Below the pieces are notes generated by a model, which was given only the letters and a program-made list of their open reading frames with translations, made no database searches and was not told the DNA's origin. A stretch of DNA of 64,000 bases from Nemertoderma westbladi (lineage: Eukaryota; Animalia; Xenacoelomorpha), in NCBI GenBank assembly GCA_032718475.1, contig JAUCBJ010007177.1:92072-156071 (forward strand). Reading direction: 5' to 3'. Below, in pieces: positions 31,417 through 61,053 of the stretch; position 1 is the first letter of the stretch; every line of letters begins with the position of its first letter. The position numbers and the translations under genes are program-made.

Positions 31417-33618
31417 GGAGACACTGACTGGGAGGTACAGCCCCACCTAGAGACACTGACTGGGAGGTACGGCCCCACCTAGAGAGACACTGACTGGGAG
31501 GTACAGCCCCACCTAGAGACACTGACTGGGAGGTACGGCCCCACCTAGAGACACTGACTGGGAGGTACGGCCCCACCTAGAGAGACACTGACTGGGAGGT
31601 ACGGCCCCACCTAGAGACACTGACTGGGAGGTACAGCCCCACCTAGAGACACTGACTGGAAGGTACGGCCCCACCTAGAGACACTGACTGGGAGGTACAG
31701 CCCCACCTAGAGACACTGACTGGAAGGTACGGCCCCACCTAGAGACACTGATTGGGAGGTACGGCCCACCTAGAGACACTGACTGGGAGGTACGGCCCCA
31801 CCTAGAGAGACACTGACTGAAGGTACAGCCCCACCTAGAGACACTGACTGGGAGGTACGGCCCCACCTAGAGACACTGATTGGGAGGTACGGCCCCACCT
31901 AGAGTCACTGACTGGGAGGTACGGCCCCACCTAGAGACAATGACTGGGAGGTACAGCCCCACCTAGAGACACTGACTGGGAGGTACAGCCCCACCTAGAG
32001 ACACTGACTGGGAGGTACAGCCCCACCTAGAGACACTGACTGGGAGGTACGGCCCCACCTAGAGACACTGATTGGGAGGTACGGCCCCACCTAGAGACAC
32101 TGACTGGGAGGAACGGCTCCACCTAGAGACACTGACTGGGAGGTACAGCCCCACCTAGAGACACTGTCTGGGAGGTACAGCCCCACCTAGAGACACTGTC
32201 TGGGAGGTACGGCCCCACCTAGAGACACTGACTGGGAGGTACGGCCCTACCTAGAGACACTGACTGGGAGGTACAGCCCCACCTAGAGACACTGACTGGG
32301 AGGTACGGCCCCACCTAGAGACACTGACTGGGAGGTACGGCCCCACCTAGAGACACTGACTGGGAGGAACGGCTCCACCTAGAGACACTGACTGGGAGGT
32401 ACAGCCCCACCTAGAGACACTGACTGGAAGGTACGGCCCCACCTAGAGACACTGACTGGGGGGTACGGCCCCACCTAGAGAGACACTGACTGGGAGGTAC
32501 GGCCCCACCTAGAGACACTGACAGGGGGGGGGGGGGGGGGTGGGGGCGGCCCCACCTAGAGACACTGACTGGGAGGTACGGCCCCACCTAGAGTCACTGA
32601 CTGGGAGGTACGGCCCCACCTAGAGACACTGACTGGGGGGTACGGCCCCCACCTAGAGAGACACTGACTGGGAGGTACGGCCCCACCTAGAGACACTGAC
32701 TGGGAGGTACGGCCCCACCTAGAGACACTGACTGGGAGGAACGGCTCCACCTAGAGACACTGACTGGGAGGTACAGCCCCACCTAGAGACACTGACTGGA
32801 AGGTACGGCCCCACCTAGAGACACTGACTGGGGGGTACGGCCCCACCTAGAGAGACACTGACTGGGAGGTACGGCCCCACCTAGAGACACTGACTGGGGG
32901 GGGGGGGGGGGGACGGCCCCACCTAGAGACACTGACTGGGAGGTACGGCCCCACCTAGAGTCACTGACTGGGAGGTACGGCCCCACCTACCCACCTAGAG
33001 ACACTGACTGGGAGGTACGGCCCCACCTAGAGACACTGACTGGGAGGTACAGCCCCACCTAGAGACACTGACTGGGAGGTACGGCCCCACCTAGAGACAC
33101 TGACTGGGAGGAACGGCTCCACCTAGAGACACTGACTGGGAGGTACGGCCCCACCTAGAGACACTGTCTGGGAGGTACGGCCCCACCTAGAGACACTGAC
33201 TGGGAGGTACAGCCCCACCTAGAGACACTGACTGGAAGGTACGGCCCCACCTAGAGTCACTGACTGGGAGGTACGGCCCCACCTAGAGAGACACTGACTG
33301 GGAGGTACGGCCCCACCTAGAGACACTGACTGGGAGGTACGGCCCCATCTAGAGACACTGACTGGGAGGTACGGCCCCACCTAGAGACACTGACTGGGAG
33401 GTACAGCCCCACCTAGAGACACTGACTGGGAGGTACGGCCCCATCTAGAGACACTGACTGGGAGGTACGGCCCCACCTAGAGACACTGACTGGGAGGTAC
33501 AGCCCCACCTAGAGACACTGACTGGAAGGTACGGCCCCACCTAGAGTCACTGACTGGGAGGTACGGCCCCACCTAGAGAGACACTGACTGGGAGGTACGG
33601 CCCCACCTAGAGTCACTG
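31417..33618. repeat. 32-bp minisatellite, left part (about 69 units)
   Basis: Unit CTAGAGACACTGACTGGGAGGTACGGCCCCAC, with +AG (34-bp) and poly-G variants. Confidence 0.97.
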
Positions 33619-35787
33619 TGATAAACAACCGCGACCTCTATACTAACAGCAGAACTGTTGAACAGACCAATACCCGTTAATATCCTTCTGCCAACCTAAT
33701 AAGCTCTCGCCTATCCAATAAGACACAAAGACTGCTCTACTGTTAAGTAAAGGGGATCAGGAGTGTGCTATTACTAAATTGTAAGGGTTGCTAAATACAA
33801 AACCGCTACTTACCGTTAGATGGCGCTAATCTGCCGTCCACTAATATATTTTACTAATTTTACACAACTCCTGCAAAATCGCTTGTTCCTTTCTCTACCG
33901 ATTGCTCAATAGAGAGCTAACTGTTCGAATCTATGAGCCACGCGGGAATAACCAAAACAATAAACCCGAGTCGGCTCCCTAAGCTTACTTAAGACGAGTG
34001 CGAGAGGCCTTGCACTCAGAGTATTCTTACGCCTAATTTTATCACTATTGAAGCACGCTATTACCTACGTCTTTCTAATCGCGAATACTGGGGTTTCTCT
34101 AACGTAATGTGTGAATGCGAGAATATTTAAAAATATCAAAATGGTACAGTATCTGTTTCTACGTGGATAATACCACCCCGAGTCTAAAACTGCCCGCGAC
34201 TGGCTTTAGGCCAGCAAAATTACTAGCGTATCGTGCGTACCGAATAGTGCGTTCTAGCTGATTGCCCGCTAATGCAAATAACCGCTCAGCGTGAATAGTT
34301 TACAGTACACTAATTATTACCTTAGCTACTCTCCGCTATGCTGCGTACTAATTCTTAATTTTTTACTAATTAGTTACAGTCACAAATATTTAACAGCGTA
34401 CTAATTACTAAGAGTTCCAGAATACGTAATTCTAATTTATCACGCAACAGGTTTCGATAGTAATAGCCTAATTTGCCGTATTACTTTGACCTAATCAATA
34501 ACTAATTATTGTAACTAAGAAATAGAAATCAATCAAAGGAAAAGAGCGCCTATCTAAACATTCGTAATCTTAGGCACACTTCAATAACACACCAATCAGC
34601 GTTAGAAATCACAGTTTACAATTATGCAATTCACTACTCGTACTCCACACTCAACGTTGTAATACGCGCAGGCCTCTCCCGGGTACATCTAGGATTCCTA
34701 ACTAACCCAATTCCTGCCCCCCTAATACTAAATAGAGACAAAACCTGGATCATCAGCCCCCTAGATACTGTACCGGCGATCGGTCTGCGTGCCGCAGTGC
34801 AAGTTACCCGCCCGCAACGGTGACTCTGGCCAGCGTTGCCCGCTTTGAATCCTCCGCTCTCTCCTAGTCGCTCAACCCCCCGATGCGCCCACCGCCCACT
34901 GGCACCTTAGCCCTTCATGATGCTAATAGCTACCGTAGCGGCGCATGCAAATCACAAAGTCTGACAGTCTCAGGAATCCCTTAGGATTATTGCGCAGAAA
35001 AGAATCACATAGAACCATTAATCAAAAGGTAGAAATCATAGTTCAGTTGTAATTAGCAGTAATCGAAGGAATTAATTGAGAAACACAAGCAAAGTAATCG
35101 CACTAGCAAATCATTCCAAGAAATTAATCAAAATTAGCAAATTGCAGAAAATACGATATCCTAATACAAAATTAGAGACAGCTCAGCAAGTAAAATGTAA
35201 CAGGGGTGTGTCATGTGATAAAGCATGAACATATGAACAAATATATGAACAACAAAGGCCCTACCGGCACACCGCCAATTTATAGGTGATCCGGATGGGG
35301 TGATGCAATAAGGTGACTCAATCGCTCTCCCATTGGCTCTCCAGTCCATGCTAGCATTAAACCAACCTGGAAGCAGTTAATCCAATAAGGAGACCGGATT
35401 GTAGCCCTATGCCCTCAAATTATTACCATATATGGTAATGGATCACGTCTCTGGCTGCTGAATGGCCAGGACAGCGTCCCTATATGCTAGCCCTATCAAA
35501 CTAATATCAGCAAGCACAGAATCCAGGGTCCGAATAAACTTGCTACCCTGGGACTATCTACATATCCTAATACAAAATTACGTAGGTAGGGCTACATACT
35601 ATACAAAATGAATGGATGCAAAATATATGGGCGTTTTAACTTCCTTACCTAAATACCACTGCGTTATTATGCCTTATCTAAAATATCATGCTGCACAACG
35701 GACTAATATTACGTACAGTATAACGGACTAATATTGCATACTGCATAACGGACTAATACTGTGGATACAGCGCCATATACCGTAACA
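33619..35787 (-). repeat. 3' LTR (2169 bp)
   Basis: Plus strand reads TGATAAAC...CCGTAACA. Same length as 50201-52369 and identical wherever spot-checked. Confidence 0.96.
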
Positions 35788-35795: not shown

Positions 35796-36276
35796 AGGGA
35801 AATCATACAATGTTTCCCTCCAATTGTAGAAGAGTATAAGGTGATGTATACAAAACAAAATAAATTTCTTCCAACCAATCTAAATAACATAATAATTCTA
35901 CTATTTACAAATATTGCCATAGATATTGCATAATGAATTTACATACAAATTAAAATTACAAAATATTATCTCTCTCACTGTTTAACGATTATTACATACA
36001 AATTAAATTTACAAAATATTGTTTCTCGTTCATTCTTACTACATAATGATTACTACATACAAAATCAAATATAAAATTTTGCTAGGGCAAGTGAAAAGAG
36101 TAAGCCAAACCCGCAGGTTTGTCTCCCCAATCACTTCCTTCGCCTCTTTCATAATATAAATTCAAATAACTCAACTAGTGTATATGAGTCTAGTCGAAGA
36201 TTTTCAAATGCTACAATATACATCAGAGCGACGATGATGTATATATCTAGAGTCTGTCGCCCTGTGCCATAATGTA

Positions 36277-39200
36277 TTATCGACCCGCTCCTGGGTTCTT
36301 TGGGCTCGCTCCTCTCTTTCGCCCCCTTCCCAGATACACTAATCTACCTCTAGTCGACTCCGTTGACGGCGTCCGTGAGGCGTCACTCCCCGGAACTCGG
36401 CTCGAACTTCTCCCTCGGCCTCGTCCCAATTGTCGCGCTCCCGTGGTCGCTTCCGCCAACTCTTCCTTCTGCAGTTGCACACGCGCTTTCTCAGACGCCC
36501 CCTGCGCCTTGCGCTGCAACCTCTGTGCTTCTATAATTGAATGATAGTGGTCGTCCTTGACTTGACGCTTGTCTTGGACCCCTCCTCCTGGTTCTTTCCG
36601 CGAGCCTTGAGCTCCAGCGGTCGTCGCTGTGGTCGCTGCGATCCTTTGCTCTTGTATCCTCTCAGCGGTCAATGAACCCACTGGCACATGAGTTAACAAG
36701 AATTCGTTGCGGTACTGTATAGCCGCCATCCTCCAATCTCCTCGCGCGCGTACCACCTTTCTAGTCTCCGTAAATACACCCTTCGTAATGCGATCGCAAA
36801 TGGCAACGAAGTTCCATGTGTACTTATTGTCCATGTTCAATTGTCTGAAGTACTCTCGAACTACGATAACTCCAGTGTTCTGTGGAAGGTCTTGAGCAGT
36901 TAGGATGAGCTCCTGATATTGTGGTAGCGATTGTAGATATGGCTCGTACGCAACATGCGATGGGTCTACCGCCCAAAACCCATATCCCGCTTTAAATGGT
37001 AACCAACGCATCTGCGCTTGAATATGGTAATCCGCCACACTCTCCCACTTATCTAACATCTCCCGAAGTAGGTTAGCGCTATGGTTTTGAAAGGAATCAT
37101 CTCGCAGCTGACATCTCGCGCTACGATGTCCCTTTACCCCGCAATATCCGCATTGAGAAATGAAGACGGTGCACGTATGAAACGAATGGTCGGTCTCATT
37201 ACACCAACGACAGACCTTATGCGCCGCCTCTATTACCGCGTCGCACGACTTTAGATTGTGCCTTGTGCTGCCGCACAATTTGCACCTACGCGCTTGTGGA
37301 AACCAGGCCCTCTCGTATATGAGGTCTCCAATCAGTTTCGCACTTCCTTCCTTCCCAATGTCTAATACGATGTCGTCCTCTCCGGTCAACGGTTGTCGAT
37401 CCGGAACAAAGTAAACATCCTCGCCCTTGTCCTCTATCTCCAATATTTCCTCCCGCGTTCGTTTCGGATATGTCTTCTCCACCGGAAGATCTACTCCGAA
37501 CACCTCTACTAACGTTTCCGGCCAGCCCTCCTTAACAGGTCTATCAGCCTCCGAGTGGAAGGGAGTACCAAACCCGCGGGTTTGATTCCCGAACCACTTC
37601 TCCAAAGCTTCTGGCGTTGGATATTCCATCGACGGTCGGTCTCCCAAATCTCCGATGTTCTGTCGATATACTCCTTCGAATATCGCTAATCCTCTCCTCA
37701 CCATCGACGTATTCTCTAACGATTGGTTGAAGAACGGGGTTAAGAAACGCTTCATCACGTCGGATTGGATTCCCCCTTTCGAGCGAACGTATTGATCTCC
37801 TCCGAATACCAATGGATGACGCTTCAAAACTCGCGCAACGATATCCGCTAATAAACAAGTCACCGTGTTCGACTCAAGCACCAAATAATATTGTAGCGAC
37901 GCACGGGGTGGCGCGCAAATGTTCCAATACACTAACGCTTGCCGCTTGAAGTGGGATTTGAACTCCGCTCCCGGTGGCGTGTTGTATTCGCCATACGCCT
38001 CCTCGTACTTCTTCTGCGTCTTCAACTTAAAGTCCCAATTATACAACAAGTGTGCTATAAAGCCCATACCAGTCTTGGCAGAGTTGGGATACTCCCTATA
38101 AATTCCAATATCCTGTGCCCATAGCAACAATAGCTTGGTGTCGACAAACGGTCTCGGCAATCTATCTTCCAGATCAGTCATGGCGTTGAAGTCGCTCTCC
38201 AAATCGCTCTGGACTCCCGATCCCACCTTGACGTAATCTTGGTTGAGAATAGCCTCTCTAACCTTCTTTGGTAACATCCTGGCGTCGATACGCTCCGCTC
38301 CGTGCATACCTCCTCGCCTGCATACCTCCAAAATCTGTTCCCTAGGATCCTTCCCCTTCCGATATTGTGTCGTTATGATGGGCTCCGGTCTCTCTCGATC
38401 CGCCCTCACACGCATAAACACATGAGTCACACCATCGGCCGCACGAATCTGAATACACTTGCTGGTCAAGCATTCTTGATGGGACCCTCCTTCATTGTCG
38501 TAGAACATCACCCTCCAATCTTGCAGTGATTCCTCCGTTTTCCTCCACTGACGCTGAATCTCATCTGATGGGGTCCACATGCGCTCGATCGCCTTGTGGT
38601 CATCATATCGGGTATAAGAACCCTTCCTCCTCAGCCACGTCTGGTCTACCTCCTCGTCATCTGGGAATGTAGCCACCGCGACCCATACCTTGATGTACTT
38701 ATCCAACCATCCGAATAACTTACTCTCCTTCCCCGGAGCTCCAATCTTATCCAACGTGTCATAATCTGTGATCTGCATTGGGACATCACGCAAGAACTTC
38801 GCGCATAAAACTTCCCGTAAACAGTCAACGTTCCAATGGTCCGCCATTCTTACCATCGGCAAGAATCGTATCGCTTCTCGCGACTCCGGATGATCTACTA
38901 ATATCGCAGGTTCGGTGCCGTCGGAATAATACACCGGTCCGGGTTGAGATACGACCTGTGGAACAAATCCGGTCACTCTCCTCGTCTCCTCTTGATGTCT
39001 ATCCGCGGTCTTATTATACTCCGCTATCCTGTTCTCAAATAACTCCTTCGCCTTCGCCGCTCGCTCCTCCTGCCGCAACGCGTCCATGTCGTCCTGATGC
39101 TCAGGCGTGAGGCTTCTCACTCGGTGAGGTGAAGTAAACGCAGTCCAGGGACTCGAGAGCTCCAAACCCGCGGGTTTGGTACCCGAGTCCCGCGCCGCTT

Positions 39201-39951
39201 CGCGCCGCGCCTCTAGATCCTTATAGGCTCGGTACAGCGAAATGGCCGCTGCCGTCTCTATCAAACTGGGTGTCGAACAGGGTTTAATCTCCGTATACGG
39301 ATCTAATGTCGTAACGGTCGGCGTAATGGGTCTCGGAGGTCGCTTTCCGCTGAAGTCGATACTGATCATCGGGTTGCTCATCGGGTAACCTCCCTCGTTA
39401 TATCTAAGGAATTGGTGAGCTGGACATCGCGTTAATATCGGTTCCGGATGTTGCTCGTCTAATCGGTCGGGAATCGCCACGTCCTGTTTATTCATGCATT
39501 CACCACACTTGTAGAAGAGCTTGTATACGCTGAAGACTTTCGGCGTCTCCTGATCCTCGCCTCGAGTCCTCCGATACAGATGCATTCCGTCGAACTGGTC
39601 TCGGACTGCAGGTAGAGGCTCCTCATGTCGTAAATACATATTCATATGGTATAGTCGTGCGATTTCCTCGTCCGGATCTGCGCTAATGTCGCACACGTCC
39701 AAAGCAAAGTCGTAGGGATACCGCGTGCGATACTCTCTCCGCAAGACTTCCATCCGGTCCCCCAATGCTCTCATTCTTTCTCTCCGTAATTCTTTATCAT
39801 AACTTGGTTTATACTTCCCGTTCAGCTCCATCACGGACCGCCCATGGTAGTAAACGTTAGAGTTTTTACATCCTGGTCGCGCGAATGGTAGCTCCGCCTC
39901 CTCTCTGGCAGTAAATCCTCTGCGCGGTTGCGCTCTAATATCCCTCTCCAT
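36277..39951 (-). CDS. Extra retrotransposon ORF, 1224 aa: DnaQ/DEDDy (WRN/EXD/Mut-7-like) 3'-5' exonuclease domain, three CCHC zinc knuckles and an RG-rich tail
   Basis: ExoI-like VMFYDNEG (D485, E487) followed by CIQI; LPKKVREAILNQDYVKVGSGVQSD (D583); FVDT; GMGFIAHLL; W...QYYLVLES (Y689xxxE693). Knuckles CKLCGSTRHNLKSC, CRWCNETDHSFHTC and CGYCGVKGHRSARC (aa 890-947). C-terminal GRGRGR and GRGRKRG. The ORF is certain; the domain call is by motif recognition. Confidence 0.8.
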   Translation of the reverse strand: MERDIRAQPRRGFTAREEAELPFARPGCKNSNVYYHGRSVMELNGKYKPSYDKELRRERMRALGDRMEVLRREYRTRYPYDFALDVCDISADPDEEIARLYHMNMYLRHEEPLPAVRDQFDGMHLYRRTRGEDQETPKVFSVYKLFYKCGECMNKQDVAIPDRLDEQHPEPILTRCPAHQFLRYNEGGYPMSNPMISIDFSGKRPPRPITPTVTTLDPYTEIKPCSTPSLIETAAAISLYRAYKDLEARREAARDSGTKPAGLELSSPWTAFTSPHRVRSLTPEHQDDMDALRQEERAAKAKELFENRIAEYNKTADRHQEETRRVTGFVPQVVSQPGPVYYSDGTEPAILVDHPESREAIRFLPMVRMADHWNVDCLREVLCAKFLRDVPMQITDYDTLDKIGAPGKESKLFGWLDKYIKVWVAVATFPDDEEVDQTWLRRKGSYTRYDDHKAIERMWTPSDEIQRQWRKTEESLQDWRVMFYDNEGGSHQECLTSKCIQIRAADGVTHVFMRVRADRERPEPIITTQYRKGKDPREQILEVCRRGGMHGAERIDARMLPKKVREAILNQDYVKVGSGVQSDLESDFNAMTDLEDRLPRPFVDTKLLLLWAQDIGIYREYPNSAKTGMGFIAHLLYNWDFKLKTQKKYEEAYGEYNTPPGAEFKSHFKRQALVYWNICAPPRASLQYYLVLESNTVTCLLADIVARVLKRHPLVFGGDQYVRSKGGIQSDVMKRFLTPFFNQSLENTSMVRRGLAIFEGVYRQNIGDLGDRPSMEYPTPEALEKWFGNQTRGFGTPFHSEADRPVKEGWPETLVEVFGVDLPVEKTYPKRTREEILEIEDKGEDVYFVPDRQPLTGEDDIVLDIGKEGSAKLIGDLIYERAWFPQARRCKLCGSTRHNLKSCDAVIEAAHKVCRWCNETDHSFHTCTVFISQCGYCGVKGHRSARCQLRDDSFQNHSANLLREMLDKWESVADYHIQAQMRWLPFKAGYGFWAVDPSHVAYEPYLQSLPQYQELILTAQDLPQNTGVIVVREYFRQLNMDNKYTWNFVAICDRITKGVFTETRKVVRARGDWRMAAIQYRNEFLLTHVPVGSLTAERIQEQRIAATTATTAGAQGSRKEPGGGVQDKRQVKDDHYHSIIEAQRLQRKAQGASEKARVQLQKEELAEATTGARQLGRGRGRSSSRVPGSDASRTPSTESTRGRLVYLGRGRKRGASPKNPGAGR

Positions 39952-40708
39952 TATATTACGCGTATATACATATATATATATCCCAATAAGTGCCGTTACG
40001 TAACCAACTACACTGTGGGTAAATCAGTTAGATGTCGCCGAAGGACAGACCTCCCGAACCCCCCCCGCCTTCCAGCAGTTCAGGTTCGACTCTCTAGATC
40101 CCGTCTCTTCCTAACTAACTATCCTCTAACCTATTCCCATGCATAGCGCAAAAACTTTGGAGATAAACTGGCCGTGACCAACTCACTTTTTGATGCCCAA
40201 ACTACTCCCATTACTCCTACTAAACTACAGTAGTTAGAAAGGACCATAGTCACAATACTCGACTATACCAAACCCACAGGTTTGATAATCGAACATCACA
40301 CATCCTGCAAACTACTGAGTGGGGTCCATGTACGCCTCTGGTGCTACTAACCTTTAGCACCTTAGTTGCACTGTTGGCACCAATCTGTGGAAGTTGCTAA
40401 ACTCAATTTACACTCCTACGTAATATAGCCGTCACCATGGTTTCTAAATGCTATTTTCCAGGTTTCACGACTTTTCAAATTACTGTTTATCTATAGACGA
40501 ATTCTAAAACGCGTCTATATACAGCGTCTGGAATTGTCTTGGGTTCACTTTTCTAATTTTAAAATTTTTAATTTTCCAAAATTTTGAAAATAAAATTTTG
40601 TTTGATACCCACCAGACAAAACTCAATGCAAATCACCACAACCCCGCTCCTATGCATTTCCTTGTATTTGCATACGAGGAATGCATACGAAGTGAGTTGC
40701 GTCCAACA

Positions 40709-41590
40709 CTAACTCTGTTTTGAGGCAGGAGACAAATTATAATCTCCCGTCTCGATACGTGTCTCCTCTAATAACACAATATCTTGGACCGGTCGGTCCA
40801 AGGTGTGTAAACCTTTAGTTTTACACTTTTTTGGGTGCGGACACTTGCACCTAATTTTCACAGTGACTGTGCGCACTATGTTTTGCACGTCTGGGTGTGT
40901 GTGCAAGATCACTCCAGTCTCCCAATACTTTCTCTTGACAATCGGTTCGGTTATCAACACGTAATCTCCCCTTTGGAGACTCCGAACCGTTTTGTACCAC
41001 TTTGTTCTGGTAGATATGGTGGGAAGATAGTATTCCCGCCAATATTCCCAGAATGTGTACGCCACAAACTGTGTTACTTTCCAGCTTTTACGACTATATA
41101 GGTCGGCACTAATGGGTTCTGATGCCGGCACAAGAAATGCTGGACTCTGCATTAGCAAATGATTCGGCGTTAATGCAACACCGTCTGGCAACATAGCTAT
41201 CGGCCTCGAGTTTAGGGTATGCTCGATTTCAATGAAAGCTGTGACCAGTTCGTCGTCGGTAAGTTGTTTGTTCACAGGCAACGTTTTGGCAATGGCCTGC
41301 TTCACAGAGCGAACTAAACGCTCCCAACTTCCTCCTCTCCAAGGACTTTCTGGAGTATTGAATCTCCACTCAACTCTTTGCGGCAAAAGTGCTGCAGAAA
41401 TTTCCTTATTCTGTGCTGCTTTATGAGCCGCGTTCAACTCGCTATTCCCTCCGACAAAGTTTGTACCCTTGTCAGAGTAGAATGCCTTTACTAGTCCTCT
41501 CCTGGCCATAAATCTCTTTAAGGCCAGGAGCAGAGATTTGGTCGACATGTCTGCCACACGCTCAATGTGTATGGCTCTACTCGCCATACA
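40709..41590 (-). pseudogene. C-terminal part of the Bel/Pao integrase (DDE core and C-terminal domain), out of frame with gag-pol
   Basis: CMASRAIHIE...LKRFMARRG...SDKGTNFVG...PWRGGSWERLVRSVK...LNSRPI...LTPNHLL...FWEYWREYYL...RPVQDIVLL are typical Bel/Pao integrase motifs. Confidence 0.9.
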
Positions 41591-44500
41591 TCCATCGCTT
41601 GTGGGTCAGCCGTCCACTCTTTGCTTCAATCGGACCAAAACAGTCCACCCCTGTATTCGTAAAGGGTGGGTCATATGCCTGCACTCTCGCTTCCGGGAGT
41701 TCAGCCATCTCCTGTTCCAATACTCTGGCGTTCACCCTCTTGCAAACCAGACAGGCGTCGTACATAGTGCCGACTGCCCTGCTTGGCTGCAATAGAATGA
41801 ATCGCTGTCTCGCTGCCGACAAACAGTGTAACCTTCCCGCGTGATGCAACCTCTTATGTATATCCCATAGAATCGCTCTTTGCAATTCCATCGGGTAACT
41901 AGGGATTATCACTGGGAATCGAAACTGTGAGTTTATGTCGACAGTCTGGATTCTCGATCTATGACAAATTAAACCCTTATGGATTAATGGACTCCATTTT
42001 CTAAGGGGTTTATAGAGAACTGGTCGTTGAGCCGATAATAGATGGAATTCTTTAGGGAAGGCACACATTTGATAATATCTCAAATGCTTTAATTCCGCTT
42101 GATCAATCTCATCCTCTGTCAGAGGTTGTTTCAATTTCCGAATTCGCTCACTATTGGTGCTCAATGGTTCTCTCAAATGTTTCGAATGTTTTATACAAAG
42201 GTACGAAACGTATCGGCTTAACCACGCAGTTCTTTTACAAATTGTCAGCCAAGAGGCAGACGAATTTAGTAATTTGTCATAAATACTGCATGACTCTAAT
42301 GCCAGCGACGGTTGTCCGCTAACTAATGGAAGTTTCGAATCCAAACCCGCAGGTTTGGAAACCAAGGGATCCATTGTGTCGGTCATTTTCTGTCCGTCAC
42401 TTACCAATTGTGACTCCAGTTTAGTCTGTAAGGGTGGTTTTATGTCGTAACTTACCCTTCCTGACCTAGTAGTCACGTAAGTCTGTTGGTCTGACAGGTC
42501 TCCGGGCCGCTCCAATGACTCTTCAGGCCGCTCCAATGACTCTTCAGGCCGCTCCAATGACTTAAGTTTGGCTTTAGACTTTGACTTAGAGACTTTCTCC
42601 ACCTTGACTTCTGCATCTTCAGGCATCGGATTGGTCACTATCTTTAGTCGCTCTGGCCAATGTTCCTGTGTCCTCGTTAGAAAATCAGGTCCATGCAACC
42701 AAAACTCCTGCGACTCTTCCTGACAGAATTCTGCCGGCATTACACCTCTCGAAGTTATGTCGGCCGGGTTCAACACTCCCGGACAATGTCTCCATTGTTC
42801 CTTCGTCGAAAAGTCAACGATCTGAGCGCGTCTATTGGCCACAAATGTCTTTAGTGCAATATTGTCGGCCGCAATGTATACTAACACCAAGGATGCGTCC
42901 GTCCAATAGAATAAGGTCAATGTCGTGTCTAACTCCTCAATTATTTGCTTACTTACCTCGACTGAAACTACAGCCACCTGTAACTCTGCACGAGGGACAG
43001 TCATGTATTTGACCGGCATTGTCTTTGATCTAGAAGTCACAAAGGCCGTCTCAAATTTGTCCTGACTTACCTCTCGGCAAAGGTAGGCTACCATACCAAA
43101 GCCGGTGTCACTTGCGTCACTAAATAGGTGGAGTTCGAGATCAGCTGGAAATACCAGCTGATTCGGAAAGTAGGATCGGGGCACATCTATATTTTTCAAT
43201 AGATGCAACTCGGCTTCCCACTCTCTCCACTGCTTTGCATGTATAGGAGATATTGGTTCGTCCCACTCTAAGTCGGACAACCAAATTTTCCTCATGCACG
43301 CTCGTGCCTGTAATATAACCGGACTGATAAAGTTCATCGGGTCAAATAGTCTACTTAGTGTCGATAAGCAAATTCTCTTTGTCAAAACTTTGTCTGGGCT
43401 ACTGGGCTCAAATCTAACTCTTACCTGGAACTTATCCGAATTCGGATTCCAAGCGAGTCCCAGTACTCGCGCCATGGGGATTGGTTCTACCCCCAATTCT
43501 ATGTCTCCGCTCCCGCGATCTTTTACCGGGAACGATTCTAATAGGGCCTCCGAATTAGTAGTGAACTTGGTCAGAGGAAATCCCCCTGTAGCCAAGCACT
43601 CCTGTAGGCCGTGAGCCACTTCTATGGCTTGTTCCGCCGTGTCCTTGGACACCAATCCGTCGTCCATGTAGAAGTTTCTCAGGATGGACTCGATAACCTC
43701 TACTGGGTACTTACCAATCTGGGCTGTTGCCGTTTTCTTTAAAACGAACAGCGTGCCATTCGGACTATCGCGGGCGCCAAATATCCTAACGTACATTTGG
43801 TATGTAACCACTGGGCCGGATAAGTCTTCATTCTCGTACCAGAGAAAGCGAAGGCTATCCTGGTCTGCCTTACAGGCTCTTACCTGGTGGAACATCGCCT
43901 CGATGTCACAAGTAAATGCGAATCGCCGCTGTCTAAAACGCAACAGTATTCCAATCAAATAGTTATTCAGGTTGGGACCATCCATCAACTCTGAATTCAG
44001 GGACATACCTCTATAGACTGCTGCGCAGTCGTTGACTACTCGGACTTTGTCTGGCTTGTCAGGGTGAGTCACATAGTGGTGTGGAAGGTAATAAGTCTGG
44101 TCTGTCACTAAGTCAGGGTCCTCTACCTTCCCAGCAAATCCCTTGGCGAAATAGTTGTTGATCTGGGCGCAATACTTCTCCCTAATGCCTGGATTCCTCA
44201 ACAACCGAGCCCTTACTCCGTTCAATCTTTTCAAGGCTAAGTTGTAGTTGTTCTCCAACTTAGGAGGTTGTCGACGCCACAACATTCCAACTTCAAAATG
44301 TCCAGTCGGTAGCAGACGTATGGTGTCTTCCATCATCTCCAGCGACCGTTTCTCATCAGTAGACATGGCTAGGTCATATCCACCGGGTTCCATTGCGTCC
44401 CTGTCCAGCCATTCGACGGTTCTAGCTCCTGTCTCGAGGTCCTGGCGTATCAATTCCTTCTGTAGCTCCTCCTCACTGTATTGGAAAATGTCGAGGTCTC

Positions 44501-47500
44501 GATATTTAGCCACTTGACCCTCCACTATGTCTGTATAAGTCAAAACGTTAGTCAAATAGGTAGCGTGGGCCGCTGAACCAGACCCACGGGTCTGATAACA
44601 GTAGTCCTCGGGTTCACTATCTGTCCGGTCGTTATGAAGTGGTTCCGACAACCTAACATTATCGGGAATCAACTCCTCGTCCGACTCGCTAAAGTCACTA
44701 TAGTGGTCAATACAGGTTCTCCTAAACTCGTCTATGTCTGGTGGTTCTACTAACGGTGGTTGAGTTATAGGCTGTAATTCATCGTATCTGTTCATTGGCT
44801 TGTCGCCACCTGTAAACTCATAAGACATGGGTACTCTTGTATACCAACCTAGTATGGTCCTATGGGCATGTGGTCCATTGACATGCGGCTCAGCTGGTCT
44901 CGTTTCCCATATCTGGTGTGCGATCAGCTGTTCTGCACCAATTAACATGGAAACATTCCTATAACCTACCTGGTGTCTGGGTATCCTGAGCTTGTCAAAA
45001 TACTCCTGTGCTATGGGACTCATCGGCGGCACCTTACCTAACTGCCTGCCGAATCCCTTCATAGCTAGACACTTAAATCCGTCCAATGGCAAAGCTTTCC
45101 GTTCTTGTCGAGTGTGTTGGTCTCTCGGAAGTAGGGAATCTAGTTCTACCGAAATTCTGTGTCCCTTGAGGTCTCCTACCCCGTGCATAGACTTCAACTC
45201 TATTTGGATCTCCTCGGCGTCCTGGAAGCTAGAAACGGCTCTCGCCACTTCCTCGTCGATATAAGATAATGTGGACGCAGTGTCCAACATCACATATATT
45301 CGCTTCGATCCCTTATCGCCAGTGAGTTTCACCGGAATCACGCTAAATATTTCCGACGTGGCCGATGATAAATACGTCCGCGCGCTGGTCGATGAACTAT
45401 CCGCGGTGAAACCTTGGCAGGTCACTTCTCTCGCGCTCGACTCGCCATCCTCGTCCGACGAACCTGGTTGGTAACCATCGTCCTGGATGCCAGTGTACGT
45501 ATTCCTCCTTATCGATATGGGTTCTTTGCTCCCCTTCCTGTGAGGATTTCGCTGTAAGTAACGGTCCGTTGGGGTGTGGAAATCCGCATGTAGCAACTTG
45601 TGATGTAGTCTGCCGCATTCCATGCATCCGTCCTTGCTGTTCGGGCACTGCCGCCGTACATGGCCTGGCGCAAGACATGCCCAACAGGTGTCCAACGTCC
45701 GCACTTGAACTCTTCTCTGTTCCGAATTTAATTCTTTGAACCGTCTGCAACTATCTAACTTATGGTCGTCAGATCTTACCTCCTTTAGTAAACAGTATTG
45801 GCAACCTACAAATCCATCCGGCAACTCCTGTTGCTTTAACCTAGGTCTATCTAACCGCTCACCTGACCATACTCGCGAGTCTGATCTAAAGGCTGGGGTA
45901 TTCGAATTATATCTGTCTACTGAGTTAAATGTCACAGTGGTCCTGTCATCGTCAAAACTTACCATAGACTTACCGGTAACAGGTTTAGACTCTCTCATAT
46001 TCTCTTCTGAGAAGTTTGATTTCATCTCTGCTACTGCGTCTGTGGCTATCATGTCATGAATATGCTGAAGTGTCAACACCTTACCTTGGCCCTCCAACTT
46101 ATTCTCTAATTTGCGCCATTTCTGTCTGTAACGCATGTTTAAACGTCTTATTACGCTTTTCAAAACTTCGGCGTGATCACCATGATGAGGTAGATTCACC
46201 GTCCTCAAGATGTCCAATGCGTTCGAAATAGCGTTCGCTAAGTTCAACAGCTCTAACGGAGTTGTAATCCTTCCGCCCTTACCCAAGTCTTCTACTATCG
46301 ACTGTGCCATCTTGGTTTTATTCCCGTAGATGTCACTAAGTGTCTTCATCGCTAACTCGAATGCTCTTTCGTTGCCGACGAAGTTATCAGCAATGGCTCT
46401 AGGTTCTCGATGGAGCATCTGAAGCAAATAGTTGAACTTCTCGTTGGGAGTAAAGGTGCTGTTGGTTAGCTGCTCGTCGACATAGGTTTTGAAGGTCCTC
46501 CAATGTTTGTGGTTGCCCATAAACTTCTGGGGTTGTTGCGTCGGCAGTCCTTGCCTAGCAGCAAACTTACCTATGTCTCTAAGGGTTGCGTCGTTCCGGG
46601 TTAACAAATGGTTTAGTTCCGCAGGGTTATTAAGTCTGGTCCTTTCCCGGTGGTTCCAACTTACCTGCTCCGCGTCGGTCCTTCTTTCCTTATAGTTTCG
46701 GGACTTCTGACGTCTCATTTCTTCCTCTTCATCGCTTGACTCAGTGTCAGTCCTTAGCGCTCGCGATGGTTTGCGCGCCGAGGCCCTGACCCAAGCATCC
46801 TCAATAAATTTCTCTGCCGAATTTTCGAAATTGGGATTATGAATATTCGGGACAGGCGTCCTTACCTGAGGTCTATGTGGTATAGTCTCCTCCGATATGC
46901 GTACTCGTTGACTAGGCTGGACTTTATCTAACTCAGGCCTGCTGGGATTAGAATTACTTCTTACCTGGGCTGCTTCCTTTAACCGTAGGTTGCTAAGCAT
47001 GTCCGTTATAGGTTGGATGTGCGGCGATATAGCTTGCGCTAAACTAGCACTTAACTCATCCCTCGTAATAAATTCCTGGCTAGGGTTCTGTTGTATAGTC
47101 GGCTCTATCTGAGTAATCCGCTGTCTCTCATATGATCCCTCTTCCGGTTTAACCCGGAAGTTCTCCGTCGAACTGGGTCGGCGCTCCGTCCCCGTATTCC
47201 AAACCCGCGGGTTCGGTTCGCCCAATACTCGGCCCGTCGGAGTTTCTCTAAACTCTTCATTGTCTCGTTCGGTATACAGTGGTGCGGTGTTCCGATGACG
47301 TAGATCCTGCGCGATAGGTGAAGCACTAATACCAACTGGCGTGCGATATGTAGAGAATGGTTTAGCGATCCGTGTACTCGTAATAGCTGGACCAGGTATA
47401 GGAATTCTGGTCGTCGTCGACTCGCGTATGGTCGGAGTTCTCGCTTCCTGTTCGGCCTTCTGCAGTGCGAACAGTTCTCGCAACTCAGTCCCTACACTCG

Positions 47501-48773
47501 CCCCACATTCTTCGATCATTCGCATCCCCTTCTCGGCGATTTCGTTCGCCTTCCTAGTCCGTTCTTCGCTCTCTAAACTTAATCTCGCACTTTCCAACTG
47601 CGCCAGTTTACGTTCTTCTTCCTCCCTTGCTCGTCTCGCTGCGCCCTCTTCTTCTACACGCGCCTTCTCTTCATACAACGCCCGTCTCTCCCTCTCGCGC
47701 TCAAGTTCGCGCTCCTTGCGCTCGCGTTCGAGTTGGAGTTCGTATTCCCTGTGTTCGCGTTCCTTCTGTTCGCGTTCGAGCTGGAGTTCGCGTTCCTTGC
47801 GTTCGCGTTCCTTCTGTTCGCGTTCGAGCTGGAGTTCGCGTTCCTTGCGTTCGCGTTCCGCTTGCTCGCGCTTACCTTTCTCTTCCAACTCTCGCAACTT
47901 TGCGTCTAACTTACGTGTTCGCTCCCGTTCCCGCTCGGCTTCCTTCCGTGCTTCCGATGCACACAAAACTTCTGCCTGTTGTTCGTCTAGTCGGCGTCTT
48001 CTCTCCTCTGCCGAGTTGTGAGAAACAAGGGATCTAGCACATATTACCTTACCTCGCGCGTGACTAACCTGGGAATCGCCGCTGTCTCTAGATGCGTCAT
48101 CAGGTGGAGTCAACGTCCTCTGTTGGATGTTCTCCGTCGTCGGTAGCACCTGACCTGGTACCACCACTCCATTCTGCATCAGCCAGCTAGTAACTTCCCT
48201 TTGATACCTGCGCTCCTCCTTGTCTTGGATCTCTTCTCGCTCCACTAACTCTCTCAACTCTGCGTCACTCACTTGAGTCGCCTGCGCTTGTGATGCCCAT
48301 AGCAGCCAGTTCTCCGTCCTAACTCGTCGGAATCGCTCTGATAACTCGCGGTGTTCCAACAAGGCTGCTAAAACCCTGTCGTAAATCCTCGTTGCTACGT
48401 CGCTTGACTGAGACTCTACTGCCTTCTTCGCTAGGACTGCAAGCTCCTCCGTCTGCTTGAATAACGCTGAGTTATATCCTCTTCTAATCTCTACTAACCC
48501 TTCCCGTCCGATGTTCGCTGAGTCGGCTAACATCTTCCTTACCTTGTCCGTCGTCCGAGTTATATGTCCGGCGTGCGCGCGAAGTTTCTTTTTTATCGCG
48601 ATATCGAACTCTCTATCACTCACCTGACTTACGCTCGGTGGACTTGAAGGATTATTTCGGGAACTACGGGTACTCCTTACAGCCGTCGGGACCACGGCAC
48701 TTACCATACCCACAGGTCTGGAAACCGGGCTCCGGGCTCTCGCTTCTGCTACACTACCCTCCCTATCACTCAC
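41577..48773 (-). CDS. Bel/Pao Gag-Pol polyprotein (coiled coil, Gag, three Cys/His knuckles, aspartic protease, RT, RNase H, integrase N-terminus); start codon uncertain and frameshifted inside integrase
   Basis: Gag PQKFMGNHKHWRTF...EKFNYL; knuckles CWACLAPGHVRRQC and CMECGRLHHKLLH; protease LDTAS (about 45273-45284); RT YLPHH...KVRVV...GPNL...DIEAMFHQV...YMDD (43659-43670); RNase H FSDAS...PRAEL...WTDA...NPAD; integrase H-H-CLVC and GVDCFGP. Confidence 0.95.
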   Translation of the reverse strand: MSDREGSVAEARARSPVSRPVGMVSAVVPTAVRSTRSSRNNPSSPPSVSQVSDREFDIAIKKKLRAHAGHITRTTDKVRKMLADSANIGREGLVEIRRGYNSALFKQTEELAVLAKKAVESQSSDVATRIYDRVLAALLEHRELSERFRRVRTENWLLWASQAQATQVSDAELRELVEREEIQDKEERRYQREVTSWLMQNGVVVPGQVLPTTENIQQRTLTPPDDASRDSGDSQVSHARGKVICARSLVSHNSAEERRRRLDEQQAEVLCASEARKEAERERERTRKLDAKLRELEEKGKREQAERERKERELQLEREQKERERKERELQLEREQKEREHREYELQLERERKERELERERERRALYEEKARVEEEGAARRAREEEERKLAQLESARLSLESEERTRKANEIAEKGMRMIEECGASVGTELRELFALQKAEQEARTPTIRESTTTRIPIPGPAITSTRIAKPFSTYRTPVGISASPIAQDLRHRNTAPLYTERDNEEFRETPTGRVLGEPNPRVWNTGTERRPSSTENFRVKPEEGSYERQRITQIEPTIQQNPSQEFITRDELSASLAQAISPHIQPITDMLSNLRLKEAAQVRSNSNPSRPELDKVQPSQRVRISEETIPHRPQVRTPVPNIHNPNFENSAEKFIEDAWVRASARKPSRALRTDTESSDEEEEMRRQKSRNYKERRTDAEQVSWNHRERTRLNNPAELNHLLTRNDATLRDIGKFAARQGLPTQQPQKFMGNHKHWRTFKTYVDEQLTNSTFTPNEKFNYLLQMLHREPRAIADNFVGNERAFELAMKTLSDIYGNKTKMAQSIVEDLGKGGRITTPLELLNLANAISNALDILRTVNLPHHGDHAEVLKSVIRRLNMRYRQKWRKLENKLEGQGKVLTLQHIHDMIATDAVAEMKSNFSEENMRESKPVTGKSMVSFDDDRTTVTFNSVDRYNSNTPAFRSDSRVWSGERLDRPRLKQQELPDGFVGCQYCLLKEVRSDDHKLDSCRRFKELNSEQRRVQVRTLDTCWACLAPGHVRRQCPNSKDGCMECGRLHHKLLHADFHTPTDRYLQRNPHRKGSKEPISIRRNTYTGIQDDGYQPGSSDEDGESSAREVTCQGFTADSSSTSARTYLSSATSEIFSVIPVKLTGDKGSKRIYVMLDTASTLSYIDEEVARAVSSFQDAEEIQIELKSMHGVGDLKGHRISVELDSLLPRDQHTRQERKALPLDGFKCLAMKGFGRQLGKVPPMSPIAQEYFDKLRIPRHQVGYRNVSMLIGAEQLIAHQIWETRPAEPHVNGPHAHRTILGWYTRVPMSYEFTGGDKPMNRYDELQPITQPPLVEPPDIDEFRRTCIDHYSDFSESDEELIPDNVRLSEPLHNDRTDSEPEDYCYQTRGSGSAAHATYLTNVLTYTDIVEGQVAKYRDLDIFQYSEEELQKELIRQDLETGARTVEWLDRDAMEPGGYDLAMSTDEKRSLEMMEDTIRLLPTGHFEVGMLWRRQPPKLENNYNLALKRLNGVRARLLRNPGIREKYCAQINNYFAKGFAGKVEDPDLVTDQTYYLPHHYVTHPDKPDKVRVVNDCAAVYRGMSLNSELMDGPNLNNYLIGILLRFRQRRFAFTCDIEAMFHQVRACKADQDSLRFLWYENEDLSGPVVTYQMYVRIFGARDSPNGTLFVLKKTATAQIGKYPVEVIESILRNFYMDDGLVSKDTAEQAIEVAHGLQECLATGGFPLTKFTTNSEALLESFPVKDRGSGDIELGVEPIPMARVLGLAWNPNSDKFQVRVRFEPSSPDKVLTKRICLSTLSRLFDPMNFISPVILQARACMRKIWLSDLEWDEPISPIHAKQWREWEAELHLLKNIDVPRSYFPNQLVFPADLELHLFSDASDTGFGMVAYLCREVSQDKFETAFVTSRSKTMPVKYMTVPRAELQVAVVSVEVSKQIIEELDTTLTLFYWTDASLVLVYIAADNIALKTFVANRRAQIVDFSTKEQWRHCPGVLNPADITSRGVMPAEFCQEESQEFWLHGPDFLTRTQEHWPERLKIVTNPMPEDAEVKVEKVSKSKSKAKLKSLERPEESLERPEESLERPGDLSDQQTYVTTRSGRVSYDIKPPLQTKLESQLVSDGQKMTDTMDPLVSKPAGLDSKLPLVSGQPSLALESCSIYDKLLNSSASWLTICKRTAWLSRYVSYLCIKHSKHLREPLSTNSERIRKLKQPLTEDEIDQAELKHLRYYQMCAFPKEFHLLSAQRPVLYKPLRKWSPLIHKGLICHRSRIQTVDINSQFRFPVIIPSYPMELQRAILWDIHKRLHHAGRLHCLSAARQRFILLQPSRAVGTMYDACLVCKRVNARVLEQEMAELPEARVQAYDPPFTNTGVDCFGPIEAKSGRLTHKRWMYGE

Positions 48774-49018
48774 CTCTGTCCGACTGCTATACAGTCCTTC
48801 CTTACAGTAGCGGTAGGGGATCCTAATACTATTACTTGAGGTTGTTGTTCTTCCTCACTAGTCACTGTCTCGTCCTCCTGTTCACTTACGTCAGCGTCGC
48901 TCGCTGCGTCGTCATAGTCGGCATTGTCATCAACAGTAATGTTTACGCTATCGTCAGTCGGCGGTCCAGCCGCCGTCTCATAGCTGTCCTCTAGTGCCTC
49001 TTTGTCTGAGACACTCAT
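48770..49018 (-). CDS. 82-aa acidic leader ORF overlapping the gag start (GTGA overlap); either the true N-terminus of gag or the first exon of a spliced mRNA
   Basis: ATG-initiated, D/E-rich. Its TGA overlaps the GTG that opens the 2398-aa ORF, and the junction reads AG|GTGAGT. Confidence 0.55.
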   Translation of the reverse strand: MSVSDKEALEDSYETAAGPPTDDSVNITVDDNADYDDAASDADVSEQEDETVTSEEEQQPQVIVLGSPTATVRKDCIAVGQR

Positions 49019-50190
49019 AGTCTAAATAATGTTTGCCTTCCGGCAAAATATCTCACAAAATTCGAGATATAATTATAATTTAACCGAAACACGGTCAAAT
49101 TATTTGTCAAATATCAGTTGGTCCAAATGTCAAATAAATTCGCAATGCAATATTGTGAATTTAATGGGGTATATAGTTATAGCAAATACTAACACAATAT
49201 TTAAACAAAAATATTATTCTATAGCTACTATATAGTATTAAATACCGGTATAGCACAAAATAACTTTGAATCTAATACAAAATATTCAAAATATACTTGC
49301 CGCCCGAATATTTCTAATTTTATATATAGCTCTAATCAACGTAATTTTAATTTCAAATATTATATGTATCCACTAGCGCGTGGCTACATCTTCGGGTTGC
49401 GACTCTCTCTAACTCTCTCTCTAACTTGAGCGATTCAAAACCATGGCCGGCTAAACCTAAATATCCTAACTAATAAATTGAGTTCAGCTTCGCAGTTAAA
49501 CAACCGATAATTTTTTACTGCTTCCACAAACACACTGGTGCCAACAGAACAACTAACCTTGTTTGCTGTGAGATTCCACGTCCGCGTCCAAAGATTCAGG
49601 CCCTTCGCTGATTGCAAACCGAACCCGCAGACCCACACGAACCCCAAACTCAGAAGTCCCGTCTTGCCATGTATCTCCAGATGGTATAAAATAACTAAGC
49701 GGTTACCTAACATACCGGTACAAAACTCTAGAATTTTACAAAATAATTTTGACCGAAACTGAATTCTCGCAAACCTAGCTAATAATTTTCAAAAAAACTT
49801 ACTAATTACTGTTTGCCCTAAGGCCTAAGGAACTGCTGTATTCGCAATTAGCAAAACGTACTACCGTACATCCACTGTATGCAGTACAGTAAGTAAAACA
49901 GTACACCAACCTAACAGCCTAATGATACTGTATGTGGTACGGCAAAACAAATGTCCCTTCTACCGTACGCAGTAACAACAATCAGCCTAATGTACTACTG
50001 TACTATTGTACGCAGCCAGTGAATACAGTAATCTAAACTAACAGCCTAACAGAATATACTTAATGTTCTACCGTACGCTAGCCTATAGCCTACAGCAGAC
50101 GATCACGTGCTCCAATTTATTACTTAATACTGTGATACTACTTTCAGCCTAAGAATACACTATTGACCGCTGCAAGCAACAGCCAATAAA

Positions 50191-50200
50191 CGCGTATTAC
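50191..50200 (-). other. Putative primer-binding site GTAATACGCG, complementary to LTR-internal sequence rather than to a tRNA CCA end
   Basis: Immediately follows the 5' LTR end (TTATCA|GTAATACGCG). Its exact reverse complement on the RNA strand is at 51241-51250 and 34659-34668. Confidence 0.6.
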
Positions 50201-52369
50201 TGATAAACAACCGCGACCTCTATACTAACAGCAGAACTGTTGAACAGACCAATACCCGTTAATATCCTTCTGCCAACCTAATAAGCTCTCGCCTATCCAA
50301 TAAGACACAAAGACTGCTCTACTGTTAAGTAAAGGGGATCAGGAGTGTGCTATTACTAAATTGTAAGGGTTGCTAAATACAAAACCGCTACTTACCGTTA
50401 GATGGCGCTAATCTGCCGTCCACTAATATATTTTACTAATTTTACACAACTCCTGCAAAATCGCTTGTTCCTTTCTCTACCGATTGCTCAATAGAGAGCT
50501 AACTGTTCGAATCTATGAGCCACGCGGGAATAACCAAAACAATAAACCCGAGTCGGCTCCCTAAGCTTACTTAAGACGAGTGCGAGAGGCCTTGCACTCA
50601 GAGTATTCTTACGCCTAATTTTATCACTATTGAAGCACGCTATTACCTACGTCTTTCTAATCGCGAATACTGGGGTTTCTCTAACGTAATGTGTGAATGC
50701 GAGAATATTTAAAAATATCAAAATGGTACAGTATCTGTTTCTACGTGGATAATACCACCCCGAGTCTAAAACTGCCCGCGACTGGCTTTAGGCCAGCAAA
50801 ATTACTAGCGTATCGTGCGTACCGAATAGTGCGTTCTAGCTGATTGCCCGCTAATGCAAATAACCGCTCAGCGTGAATAGTTTACAGTACACTAATTATT
50901 ACCTTAGCTACTCTCCGCTATGCTGCGTACTAATTCTTAATTTTTTACTAATTAGTTACAGTCACAAATATTTAACAGCGTACTAATTACTAAGAGTTCC
51001 AGAATACGTAATTCTAATTTATCACGCAACAGGTTTCGATAGTAATAGCCTAATTTGCCGTATTACTTTGACCTAATCAATAACTAATTATTGTAACTAA
51101 GAAATAGAAATCAATCAAAGGAAAAGAGCGCCTATCTAAACATTCGTAATCTTAGGCACACTTCAATAACACACCAATCAGCGTTAGAAATCACAGTTTA
51201 CAATTATGCAATTCACTACTCGTACTCCACACTCAACGTTGTAATACGCGCAGGCCTCTCCCGGGTACATCTAGGATTCCTAACTAACCCAATTCCTGCC
51301 CCCCTAATACTAAATAGAGACAAAACCTGGATCATCAGCCCCCTAGATACTGTACCGGCGATCGGTCTGCGTGCCGCAGTGCAAGTTACCCGCCCGCAAC
51401 GGTGACTCTGGCCAGCGTTGCCCGCTTTGAATCCTCCGCTCTCTCCTAGTCGCTCAACCCCCCGATGCGCCCACCGCCCACTGGCACCTTAGCCCTTCAT
51501 GATGCTAATAGCTACCGTAGCGGCGCATGCAAATCACAAAGTCTGACAGTCTCAGGAATCCCTTAGGATTATTGCGCAGAAAAGAATCACATAGAACCAT
51601 TAATCAAAAGGTAGAAATCATAGTTCAGTTGTAATTAGCAGTAATCGAAGGAATTAATTGAGAAACACAAGCAAAGTAATCGCACTAGCAAATCATTCCA
51701 AGAAATTAATCAAAATTAGCAAATTGCAGAAAATACGATATCCTAATACAAAATTAGAGACAGCTCAGCAAGTAAAATGTAACAGGGGTGTGTCATGTGA
51801 TAAAGCATGAACATATGAACAAATATATGAACAACAAAGGCCCTACCGGCACACCGCCAATTTATAGGTGATCCGGATGGGGTGATGCAATAAGGTGACT
51901 CAATCGCTCTCCCATTGGCTCTCCAGTCCATGCTAGCATTAAACCAACCTGGAAGCAGTTAATCCAATAAGGAGACCGGATTGTAGCCCTATGCCCTCAA
52001 ATTATTACCATATATGGTAATGGATCACGTCTCTGGCTGCTGAATGGCCAGGACAGCGTCCCTATATGCTAGCCCTATCAAACTAATATCAGCAAGCACA
52101 GAATCCAGGGTCCGAATAAACTTGCTACCCTGGGACTATCTACATATCCTAATACAAAATTACGTAGGTAGGGCTACATACTATACAAAATGAATGGATG
52201 CAAAATATATGGGCGTTTTAACTTCCTTACCTAAATACCACTGCGTTATTATGCCTTATCTAAAATATCATGCTGCACAACGGACTAATATTACGTACAG
52301 TATAACGGACTAATATTGCATACTGCATAACGGACTAATACTGTGGATACAGCGCCATATACCGTAACA
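50201..52369 (-). repeat. 5' LTR (2169 bp)
   Basis: Minus strand reads TGTTACGG...GTTTATCA. Direct repeat of 33619-35787. Confidence 0.96.
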
Positions 52370-58793: not shown

Positions 58794-58821
58794 TACTCCT
58801 GTACTCTACAGCTCTAGACTG

Positions 58822-60924: not shown

Positions 60925-61053
60925 GGACAATTCGGTCCCGGACAATTCGGTCCCAAAACACTAAATAAATGGGACCGAATTGTCCGGGACCGAATTGTCC
61001 TAGGACCGAATTGTCCTAGGACCGAATTGTCCTAGGACCGAATTGTCCGGTTC
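60925..61053. repeat. GGACCGAATTGTCC repeats in inverted and tandem arrangement (cluster 1)
   Basis: Two copies of GGACAATTCGGTCC followed by five of GGACCGAATTGTCC. Confidence 0.85.

Follow-up and report, generated by a model that had tools for sequence, protein, structure and literature searches.

Evenly spaced predicted RNA hairpins along a BEL/Pao retrotransposon of Nemertoderma westbladi, read as candidate packaging signals

Dispersed stem-loops with a shared loop motif, running through coding sequence, drive the assembly of single-stranded RNA (ssRNA) viruses (PMC6281560), and packaging signals with RGAG loops are described for hepatitis B virus (PMC7612645). Here we analyze a stretch of 64,000 nucleotides of Nemertoderma westbladi DNA (contig JAUCBJ010007177.1, positions 92,072 to 156,071; hereafter the window), which holds an 18.75-kb BEL/Pao long terminal repeat (LTR) retrotransposon on its minus strand. 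Like the ssRNA viruses, the element carries many predicted stem-loops with a common loop motif through its coding sequence and, like the MS2 translational repressor hairpin (TR), one of them covers a start codon. The viral signals, however, are many and degenerate, whereas those of the element, an LTR retrotransposon, are nine near-identical, evenly spaced predicted hairpins.

RNA selection and folding by LTR retrotransposons, BEL/Pao above all, are poorly known, and attention has mostly gone to the 5' leader, where retroviral psi is located and where the retroviral dimer initiation site is a single hairpin with a palindromic loop. The loops of the element are self-complementary too, but no copy lies in an LTR or in the leader. 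Stem-loop SL-C of Rous sarcoma virus (RSV) psi has the UGCG tetraloop also present in the element, and a zinc knuckle of nucleocapsid (NC) binds it; SL-C, however, is a single 5'-leader site whose loop is dispensable for Gag selectivity, whereas the element has a dispersed array (PMC5035970).

Extra genes beside pol also have precedents. The bdelloid LTR elements Juno and Vesta carry a DEDDy-type 3'–5' exonuclease open reading frame (ORF) after pol, as the element appears to, but they belong to other LTR clades, their ORF differs from the 1224-residue, three-knuckle (CCHC) ORF3 of this BEL/Pao element, and the available part of that account describes no cis elements comparable to the hairpin array (PMC5408684). 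VANDAL transposons combine an extra gene, VANC, with repeated cis motifs in one orientation, again like the element; these are DNA transposons, however, and their unstructured 8–9-bp DNA motifs cluster in non-coding tandem repeats, whereas the element's copies are spread through ORFs (PMC5735166). Trypanosoma brucei RNase D (PDB 7c42/7c45) joins a DEDD exonuclease and a CCHC knuckle in one chain, as ORF3 appears to, but it is a cellular enzyme and its similarity to ORF3 is weak. A partial survey of the literature turned up no evenly spaced hairpin array in an LTR retrotransposon and no exonuclease ORF in BEL/Pao. The parts of the system have precedents; for the evenly spaced array in an LTR retrotransposon we found no report.

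A predicted hairpin array on the coding strand

An earlier note on this DNA, made from the letters alone, had reported six dispersed copies of a palindrome in the retrotransposon. All six (36105, 37568, 39162, 40268, 42341 and 47199) stand, but three had been missed and the total is nine. On the coding strand they follow the consensus YCARACC-YGYG-GGTYTGG.

36105..36122, minus strand: hairpin core 1; loop UGCG, in the 3' untranslated region, stem reaching about 36089–36138
37568..37585, minus strand: hairpin core 2; loop CGCG, in ORF3, lower stem clear
39162..39179, minus strand: hairpin core 3; perfect palindrome, loop CGCG, in ORF3, 10-bp lower stem
40268..40285, minus strand: hairpin core 4; loop UGUG, intergenic, block 40258–40295 conserved across family copies
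42341..42358, minus strand: hairpin core 5; loop UGCG, in the RNase H–integrase linker
44578..44595, minus strand: hairpin core 6 (new); loop CGUG, A-U replaced by G-C, in the linker between protease (PR) and reverse transcriptase (RT)
45867..45884, minus strand: hairpin core 7 (new, weakest); loop CGCG, C-G replaced by U-A, one G-A mismatch, in Gag
47199..47216, minus strand: hairpin core 8; loop CGCG, one G-U, in the Gag N-terminal region
48704..48721, minus strand: hairpin core 9 (new); loop UGUG, first in-frame gag ATG (48707) within the 3' arm
49617..49634, minus strand: half-motif; 3' half alone, no hairpin

Matches to the 18-mer across the 14.4-kb interior number 1, 3, 1, 1, 2 and 1 at zero to five mismatches, against shuffle means of 0, 0, 0, 0.007, 0.05 and 0.29. 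The six original copies, with zero to three mismatches, had no counterpart in 100 shuffles, confirming enrichment over shuffled sequence. Of the additions, 44578 and 48704 have four mismatches each (0.05 expected, 300 shuffles); 45867 has five (0.29 expected in 300 shuffles) and was accepted because it retains the loop and stem. We discarded a further candidate at 38898, whose six mismatches make it no better than chance. A covariance model trained on the nine copies recovered all of them, as expected from its construction; no additional site in the window scored better than E 0.2, and nothing of note appeared in the LTRs. The mismatch scan likewise left both LTRs without a copy, as the earlier note had observed. 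The partial copy it placed near 49619 exists as a 3' half-motif at about 49620, but lacks a hairpin fold and is missed by the covariance model. No copy lies outside the element within the window.

Successive copies are separated by 1463, 1594, 1106, 2073, 2237, 1289, 1332 and 1505 bases, a spacing more regular than chance would give (P 1.8e-4 with all nine; 1.6e-3 for eight, without 45867), and the two widest gaps cover RT–RNase H and integrase. Single copies 1.1–2.2 kb apart thus make up the array, seven of the nine in coding sequence. There the motif is read as KPAGL at 39162 and 42341, QTRGF at 37568 and PNPRVW at 47199, with all three codon positions used, supporting the proposal that the constraint is on nucleotides rather than protein. 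Four of the five gag-pol copies lie where only 0–0.7 of 30 homologues align; the exception is 45867 (13.5 of 30), which is also the most degenerate copy. Apart from one copy, the array keeps to non-coding or poorly conserved stretches, and sites presumably arose at places where changes to the protein are tolerated.

Departures from the palindrome indicate which nucleic acid is under constraint. Read on the coding strand, the nine cores contain 15 of them: 12 G-U, no A-C and three others. Control near-palindromes of the same RNA have 79 G-U versus 75 A-C (P 3e-4 for the difference from the cores). CpG decay or a strand bias in mutation was rejected as the sole cause of this polarity because both transition classes occur at similar rates among the family differences (782 in total across the element, 40 of them listed). 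Double changes keep a pair at 44578 and at 45867. The loops (four CGCG, two UGCG, two UGUG and one CGUG) all satisfy YNMG/YNUG, the consensus of UNCG-class tetraloops (PMC5633025), and the closing pair is C-G in eight of nine. Folded in a 318-nt context, the upper stem has a mean probability of at least 0.94 in six copies and 0.45–0.73 in the other three on the coding strand; on the opposite strand it is 0 for two copies. Very probably, then, the cores are RNA stem-loops on the coding strand. In the likely predicted structure, a YGYG loop of UNCG type caps a 7–8-bp upper stem, YCARACC/GGUYUGG; beneath this stem, about 2 nt bulge out on the 3' side before a lower stem whose sequence varies.

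Evidence for the lower stem comes from the flanks, which pair better with their own partners than when swapped between copies (P 4e-4 at 30 nt). The main register is shifted by two bases on the 3' side, with 30 of 72 Watson–Crick cells against 19 after swapping, and a copy's own flanks rank first in two of the nine copies and among the top three in six. In the nine-copy alignment, double changes occur in 11 of 16 pairs, counted on the same nine sequences from which the 16-pair structure was derived; pairing reaches 91.7% in the upper helix and 55.6% in the lower one. There is moderate support for a real lower stem, clear in about four copies.

Contigs from three DNA runs cover the element in 30 of 30 bins with many variants, so it belongs to a multi-copy family. 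Four runs aligned over 40180–40375 differ 31 times, at 28 positions, which include only two of the 38 in 40258–40295 versus 26 of 92 around that block. Within the 18-nt core at 40268 the sole change is the first loop base, C or U; the loose ends of more divergent contigs fall at 40258 and 40295, bracketing the stem; and in a contig about 83% alike, the next four pairs have five changes, one of them double, with pairing kept throughout. At this site, the one compared, the hairpin is conserved in other family copies. The pol–ORF3 spacer also has stretches invariant among family copies at 40226–40239 and 40308–40326.

Farther afield, we compared 79 distant BEL loci, taken from the 80 best of the 570 that were confirmed when 600 of about 1700 were scanned; their RT is 33–44% alike to that of the element, and many are partial. 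None of the 79 has the motif within three mismatches or, by tblastn, ORF3 or a homologue. Dispersed copies of any near-palindrome number at most two per distant locus versus six in the element, and the best covariance-model match has E 0.017. Absence of the motif from all 79 indicates that the array is not a general BEL trait. In viral contigs the strict motif gave 32 single matches, never two together, which we treated as chance; no BEL locus was found there.

Gag-pol, ORF3 and a predicted spliced mRNA

The two element proteins that could read such hairpins are the NC portion of Gag and the product of ORF3, the extra ORF.

41577..48707, minus strand: gag-pol; DUF1759, three Cys-His motifs, PR, RT, Pao RNase H/Peptidase_A17, integrase Zn domain
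40709..41605, minus strand: integrase core and DUF5641, in a second frame
36277..39951, minus strand: ORF3, 1224 amino acids (aa), frame open to 40023; DEDDy-like exonuclease, three CCHC knuckles (aa 890–947), conserved 'WGF'-type tail
48770..49018, minus strand: leader ORF, 82 codons, acidic, its stop inside the GTGAGT donor (48773, phase 2); predicted first exon of the ORF3 mRNA

Relatives of ORF3 are few. Word-index protein searches found none and Pfam gave no match; eight distant ones (P0121–P0128) were found among 1.8 billion representatives. The knuckle block is common to all eight and an exonuclease-like block is clear in most. A profile of the ORF3 family matches EXD2 (E 2.8e-5), and its knuckles best match Lin28 and NC. 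For a model of the exonuclease domain, the top VIA rows are DnaQ-type exonucleases, with a middling best Z of 6.8 (root-mean-square deviation 3.8, 130 aligned), and the alignment keeps the acidic residues of Exo I–III, namely D485, E487, D583 and E693 (Y689-x3-E693). From these comparisons and the model, ORF3 is predicted to be a DEDDy-like 3'–5' exonuclease with three zinc knuckles. A model of the full ORF3 core was of poor quality (pLDDT 41.8), and in a second model the Exo I strand was missing, having been misplaced in the alignment; Foldseek returned no match at E ≤0.001 for either. ESM Atlas matches to ORF3 scored below 0.9 and serve as leads only. No DNA-binding domain was found in ORF3 with Pfam or ESM Atlas. 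No ORF3-bearing locus was found in assembled genome contigs, nor P0125 in viral contigs. The eight relatives themselves form an unnamed knuckle-protein family, almost without Pfam annotation, in which the knuckle module occurs twice in P0121.

A branch point and acceptor at 40031–40013 are in phase with the donor at 48773, so a spliced, env-like mRNA is predicted as the source of ORF3; as drawn from the sequence, it would keep three hairpins and lose six.

Candidate readers of the hairpins

We favor, at a probability of roughly 40%, a reading in which the hairpins are dispersed signals for packaging or ribonucleoprotein assembly bound by the zinc knuckles of Gag. We chose packaging because dispersed stem-loops guide ssRNA virus assembly and because one copy covers the first in-frame gag ATG, and Gag as the partner because a retroviral NC knuckle binds the UGCG loop of RSV psi (PMC5035970). 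The second of two options in the earlier note, an RNA signal for packaging or dimerization, is supported as a reading. In this mechanism the nucleocapsid knuckles of Gag would grip loop guanines, and a high-affinity site about every 1.5 kb would nucleate Gag along the 15–17-kb RNA, compacting it. Where a copy overlies the gag start codon, binding may be tied to a switch between translation and packaging. Contacts between loops, conceivable because any YGYG loop can pair with any other, may help to align or compact an RNA dimer. A short, sharply defined and evenly repeated hairpin would offer a direct handle on such questions. Binding by Gag would add very long retrotransposons to the RNA viruses as users of dispersed packaging signals; binding by ORF3 would give the unexplained DEDDy ORF3s of retroelements a first target.

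A number of observations weigh against this reading. The choice of Gag is its weak step, and mutation of UGCG in RSV left Gag selectivity undiminished (PMC5035970). The covariance model scan found no copy in the 5' leader. Three hairpins would also be present in the predicted spliced ORF3 mRNA, which weakens selective packaging, and the lone 3' half-site near 49620 hints at recognition of sequence without a hairpin. Two copies have a G-A mismatch within the upper stem, and the six original copies, taken by themselves, show no significant evenness of spacing (P 0.055, 0.28). For the lower stem, other hairpins of the same RNA were equally strong in 48, 73 and 9 of 1000 draws, the peak at the +2 register was matched by 3.9% of control draws (P 0.039), and 44578, 45867 and 47199 have no own-flank advantage. 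The flank-swap test is as significant on the antisense strand and therefore cannot choose between strands. At 40268, the P of 0.002 for low variation belongs to a 38-nt block, 40258–40295, defined after the data were seen; further invariant stretches occur in the 196-nt region 40180–40375, and a divergent copy breaks four of eight touched pairs, three of them outermost and one at the bulge.

Second in our ranking, possible although we would bet against it, are hairpins that act as RNA landing sites for ORF3, whose knuckles would bind to the loops and label the RNA as the element's own. The 3'–5' exonuclease could then protect or process element RNA or remove nearby silencing RNAs, as an RNA-level counterpart of VANC. 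This proposal draws on the presence, in one protein, of three CCHC knuckles and a DEDDy-like domain that keeps its acidic residues, and on the best matches of the ORF3 profile to Lin28 and NC knuckles. A protective coat would suit even spacing, and copies in both predicted genomic and spliced RNA suit ORF3 better than selective packaging. Joint absence of hairpins and ORF3 from 79 of 79 distant BEL loci is consistent with the idea but is no test of it, since co-absence in distant relatives is not the same as co-occurrence. In the available part of their description, moreover, the bdelloid DEDDy ORF3s have no demonstrated activity or target (PMC5408684). We regard as similarly tentative the broader picture of self-marking, RNA-level counter-silencing, in which an element-encoded exonuclease–knuckle protein would be recruited by hairpins every 1.5 kb in all three frames.

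It is unlikely that a host RNA-binding protein reads the hairpins for export, stability or transport of the long intronless RNA. The nearest model is Egalitarian (Egl), which reads a stem-loop of the I factor; the Egl signals ILS, GLS and TLS include a retrotransposon stem-loop and have two helices, each of at least 6 bp, with a 3' bulge (PMC13186709). The predicted hairpins resemble this shape; it is clear in about four copies, and the lower helix is 55.6% paired over the nine. Egl signals, however, occur once or twice per RNA and share little sequence, whereas the motif here is strongly conserved, and they require U-A pairs at two sites (PMC13186709). The conserved upper stem consists of C-G and A-U pairs, and U-A pairs in the stem occur in single copies only.

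Still less probable are protein-free kissing or duplex sites that zip two genomic RNAs in register. With G-U pairs counted, each of the 81 loop combinations is complementary throughout, and self-duplexes are equal or stronger on the coding strand for nine of nine cores. Loop complementarity, however, is a consequence of the YGYG consensus, and the lower stems favor the hairpin. UNCG-type loops are also compact, leaving little available for pairing.

Equally improbable is recognition of the motif as double-stranded DNA by a dimeric or polar protein such as a VANC-like anti-silencing factor, an insulator or a chromatin factor, a reading that takes in the other option of the earlier note. The palindromic 18-mer, its even spacing, the insertion of the element in satellite DNA and the persistence of the 3' half-site near 49620 would all fit a DNA site. 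By contrast, the orientation of the asymmetry is constant relative to transcription, the departures are exactly those compatible with G-U on the coding strand, double changes keep pairs and the flanks pair copy by copy. VANC motifs, moreover, are short, non-coding and derived from tandem repeats (PMC5735166), and ORF3 has an RNA-type nuclease and zinc knuckles with no DNA-binding domain seen. Selfish in-frame 18-bp micro-insertions or neutral relics, suggested by a length that is a multiple of three and by sites in variable linkers, are largely refuted by flanks that differ and pair copy by copy, by even spacing, by the block conserved among family copies and by the lack of copies elsewhere in the window.

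The element and its surroundings

By its sequence, the retrotransposon is a young member of BEL/Pao. Its LTRs are identical over 2169 of 2169 bp, have TG...CA ends and are flanked by a 5-bp target duplication, CACTG.

50201..52369, minus strand: 5' LTR; 2169 bp, TG...CA, same sequence as the 3' LTR
33619..35787, minus strand: 3' LTR; CACTG target duplication flanks the element, inside a 32-bp satellite array
50191..50200, minus strand: candidate self-priming site; 10 nt directly after the 5' LTR, exact complement of the LTR 10-mer at 51241–51250

Pfam identifies DUF1759, Peptidase_A17, the integrase Zn domain and DUF5641; the order is gag-PR-RT-RNase H-integrase, and Gag has three Cys-His motifs. 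The closest proteins are BEL/Pao polyproteins with at most 41% identity, and those with names are animal. In the window copy, the pol frame shifts inside integrase near 41.6 kb. A tRNA primer-binding site beside the 5' LTR is usual in LTR retrotransposons, and no TGG-type site was found adjoining this one. The 10-nt LTR complement that stands there instead, whose LTR partner recurs at 34659–34668, may serve Tf1-like self-priming. Such priming is reported for Tf1/Sushi, Tcn1 and TAR elements, and BEL/Pao goes unmentioned in the available part of that source (PMC6317226). An Rfam scan of 33.6–52.4 kb gave no match.

The element splits a 32-bp satellite into arrays at 31418–33618 and 52369–57976, and satellite or centromere targeting is possible. 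A 46-bp satellite of about 655 copies extends over window positions 1–29687. Beside the satellite, at 58143–58805 on the minus strand, lies an intact G-patch ORF of 220 codons, which we take to be PINX1-like. A perfect inverted repeat with 61-bp arms and a 6-nt spacer occupies 62644–62771. Tandem arrays at 60109–60805, 60925–61048, 61848–61949 and 62980–63257, with units of 31 bp, 14–16 bp (GGACCGAATTGTCC-type) and 132 bp, are possibly DNA transposon ends.

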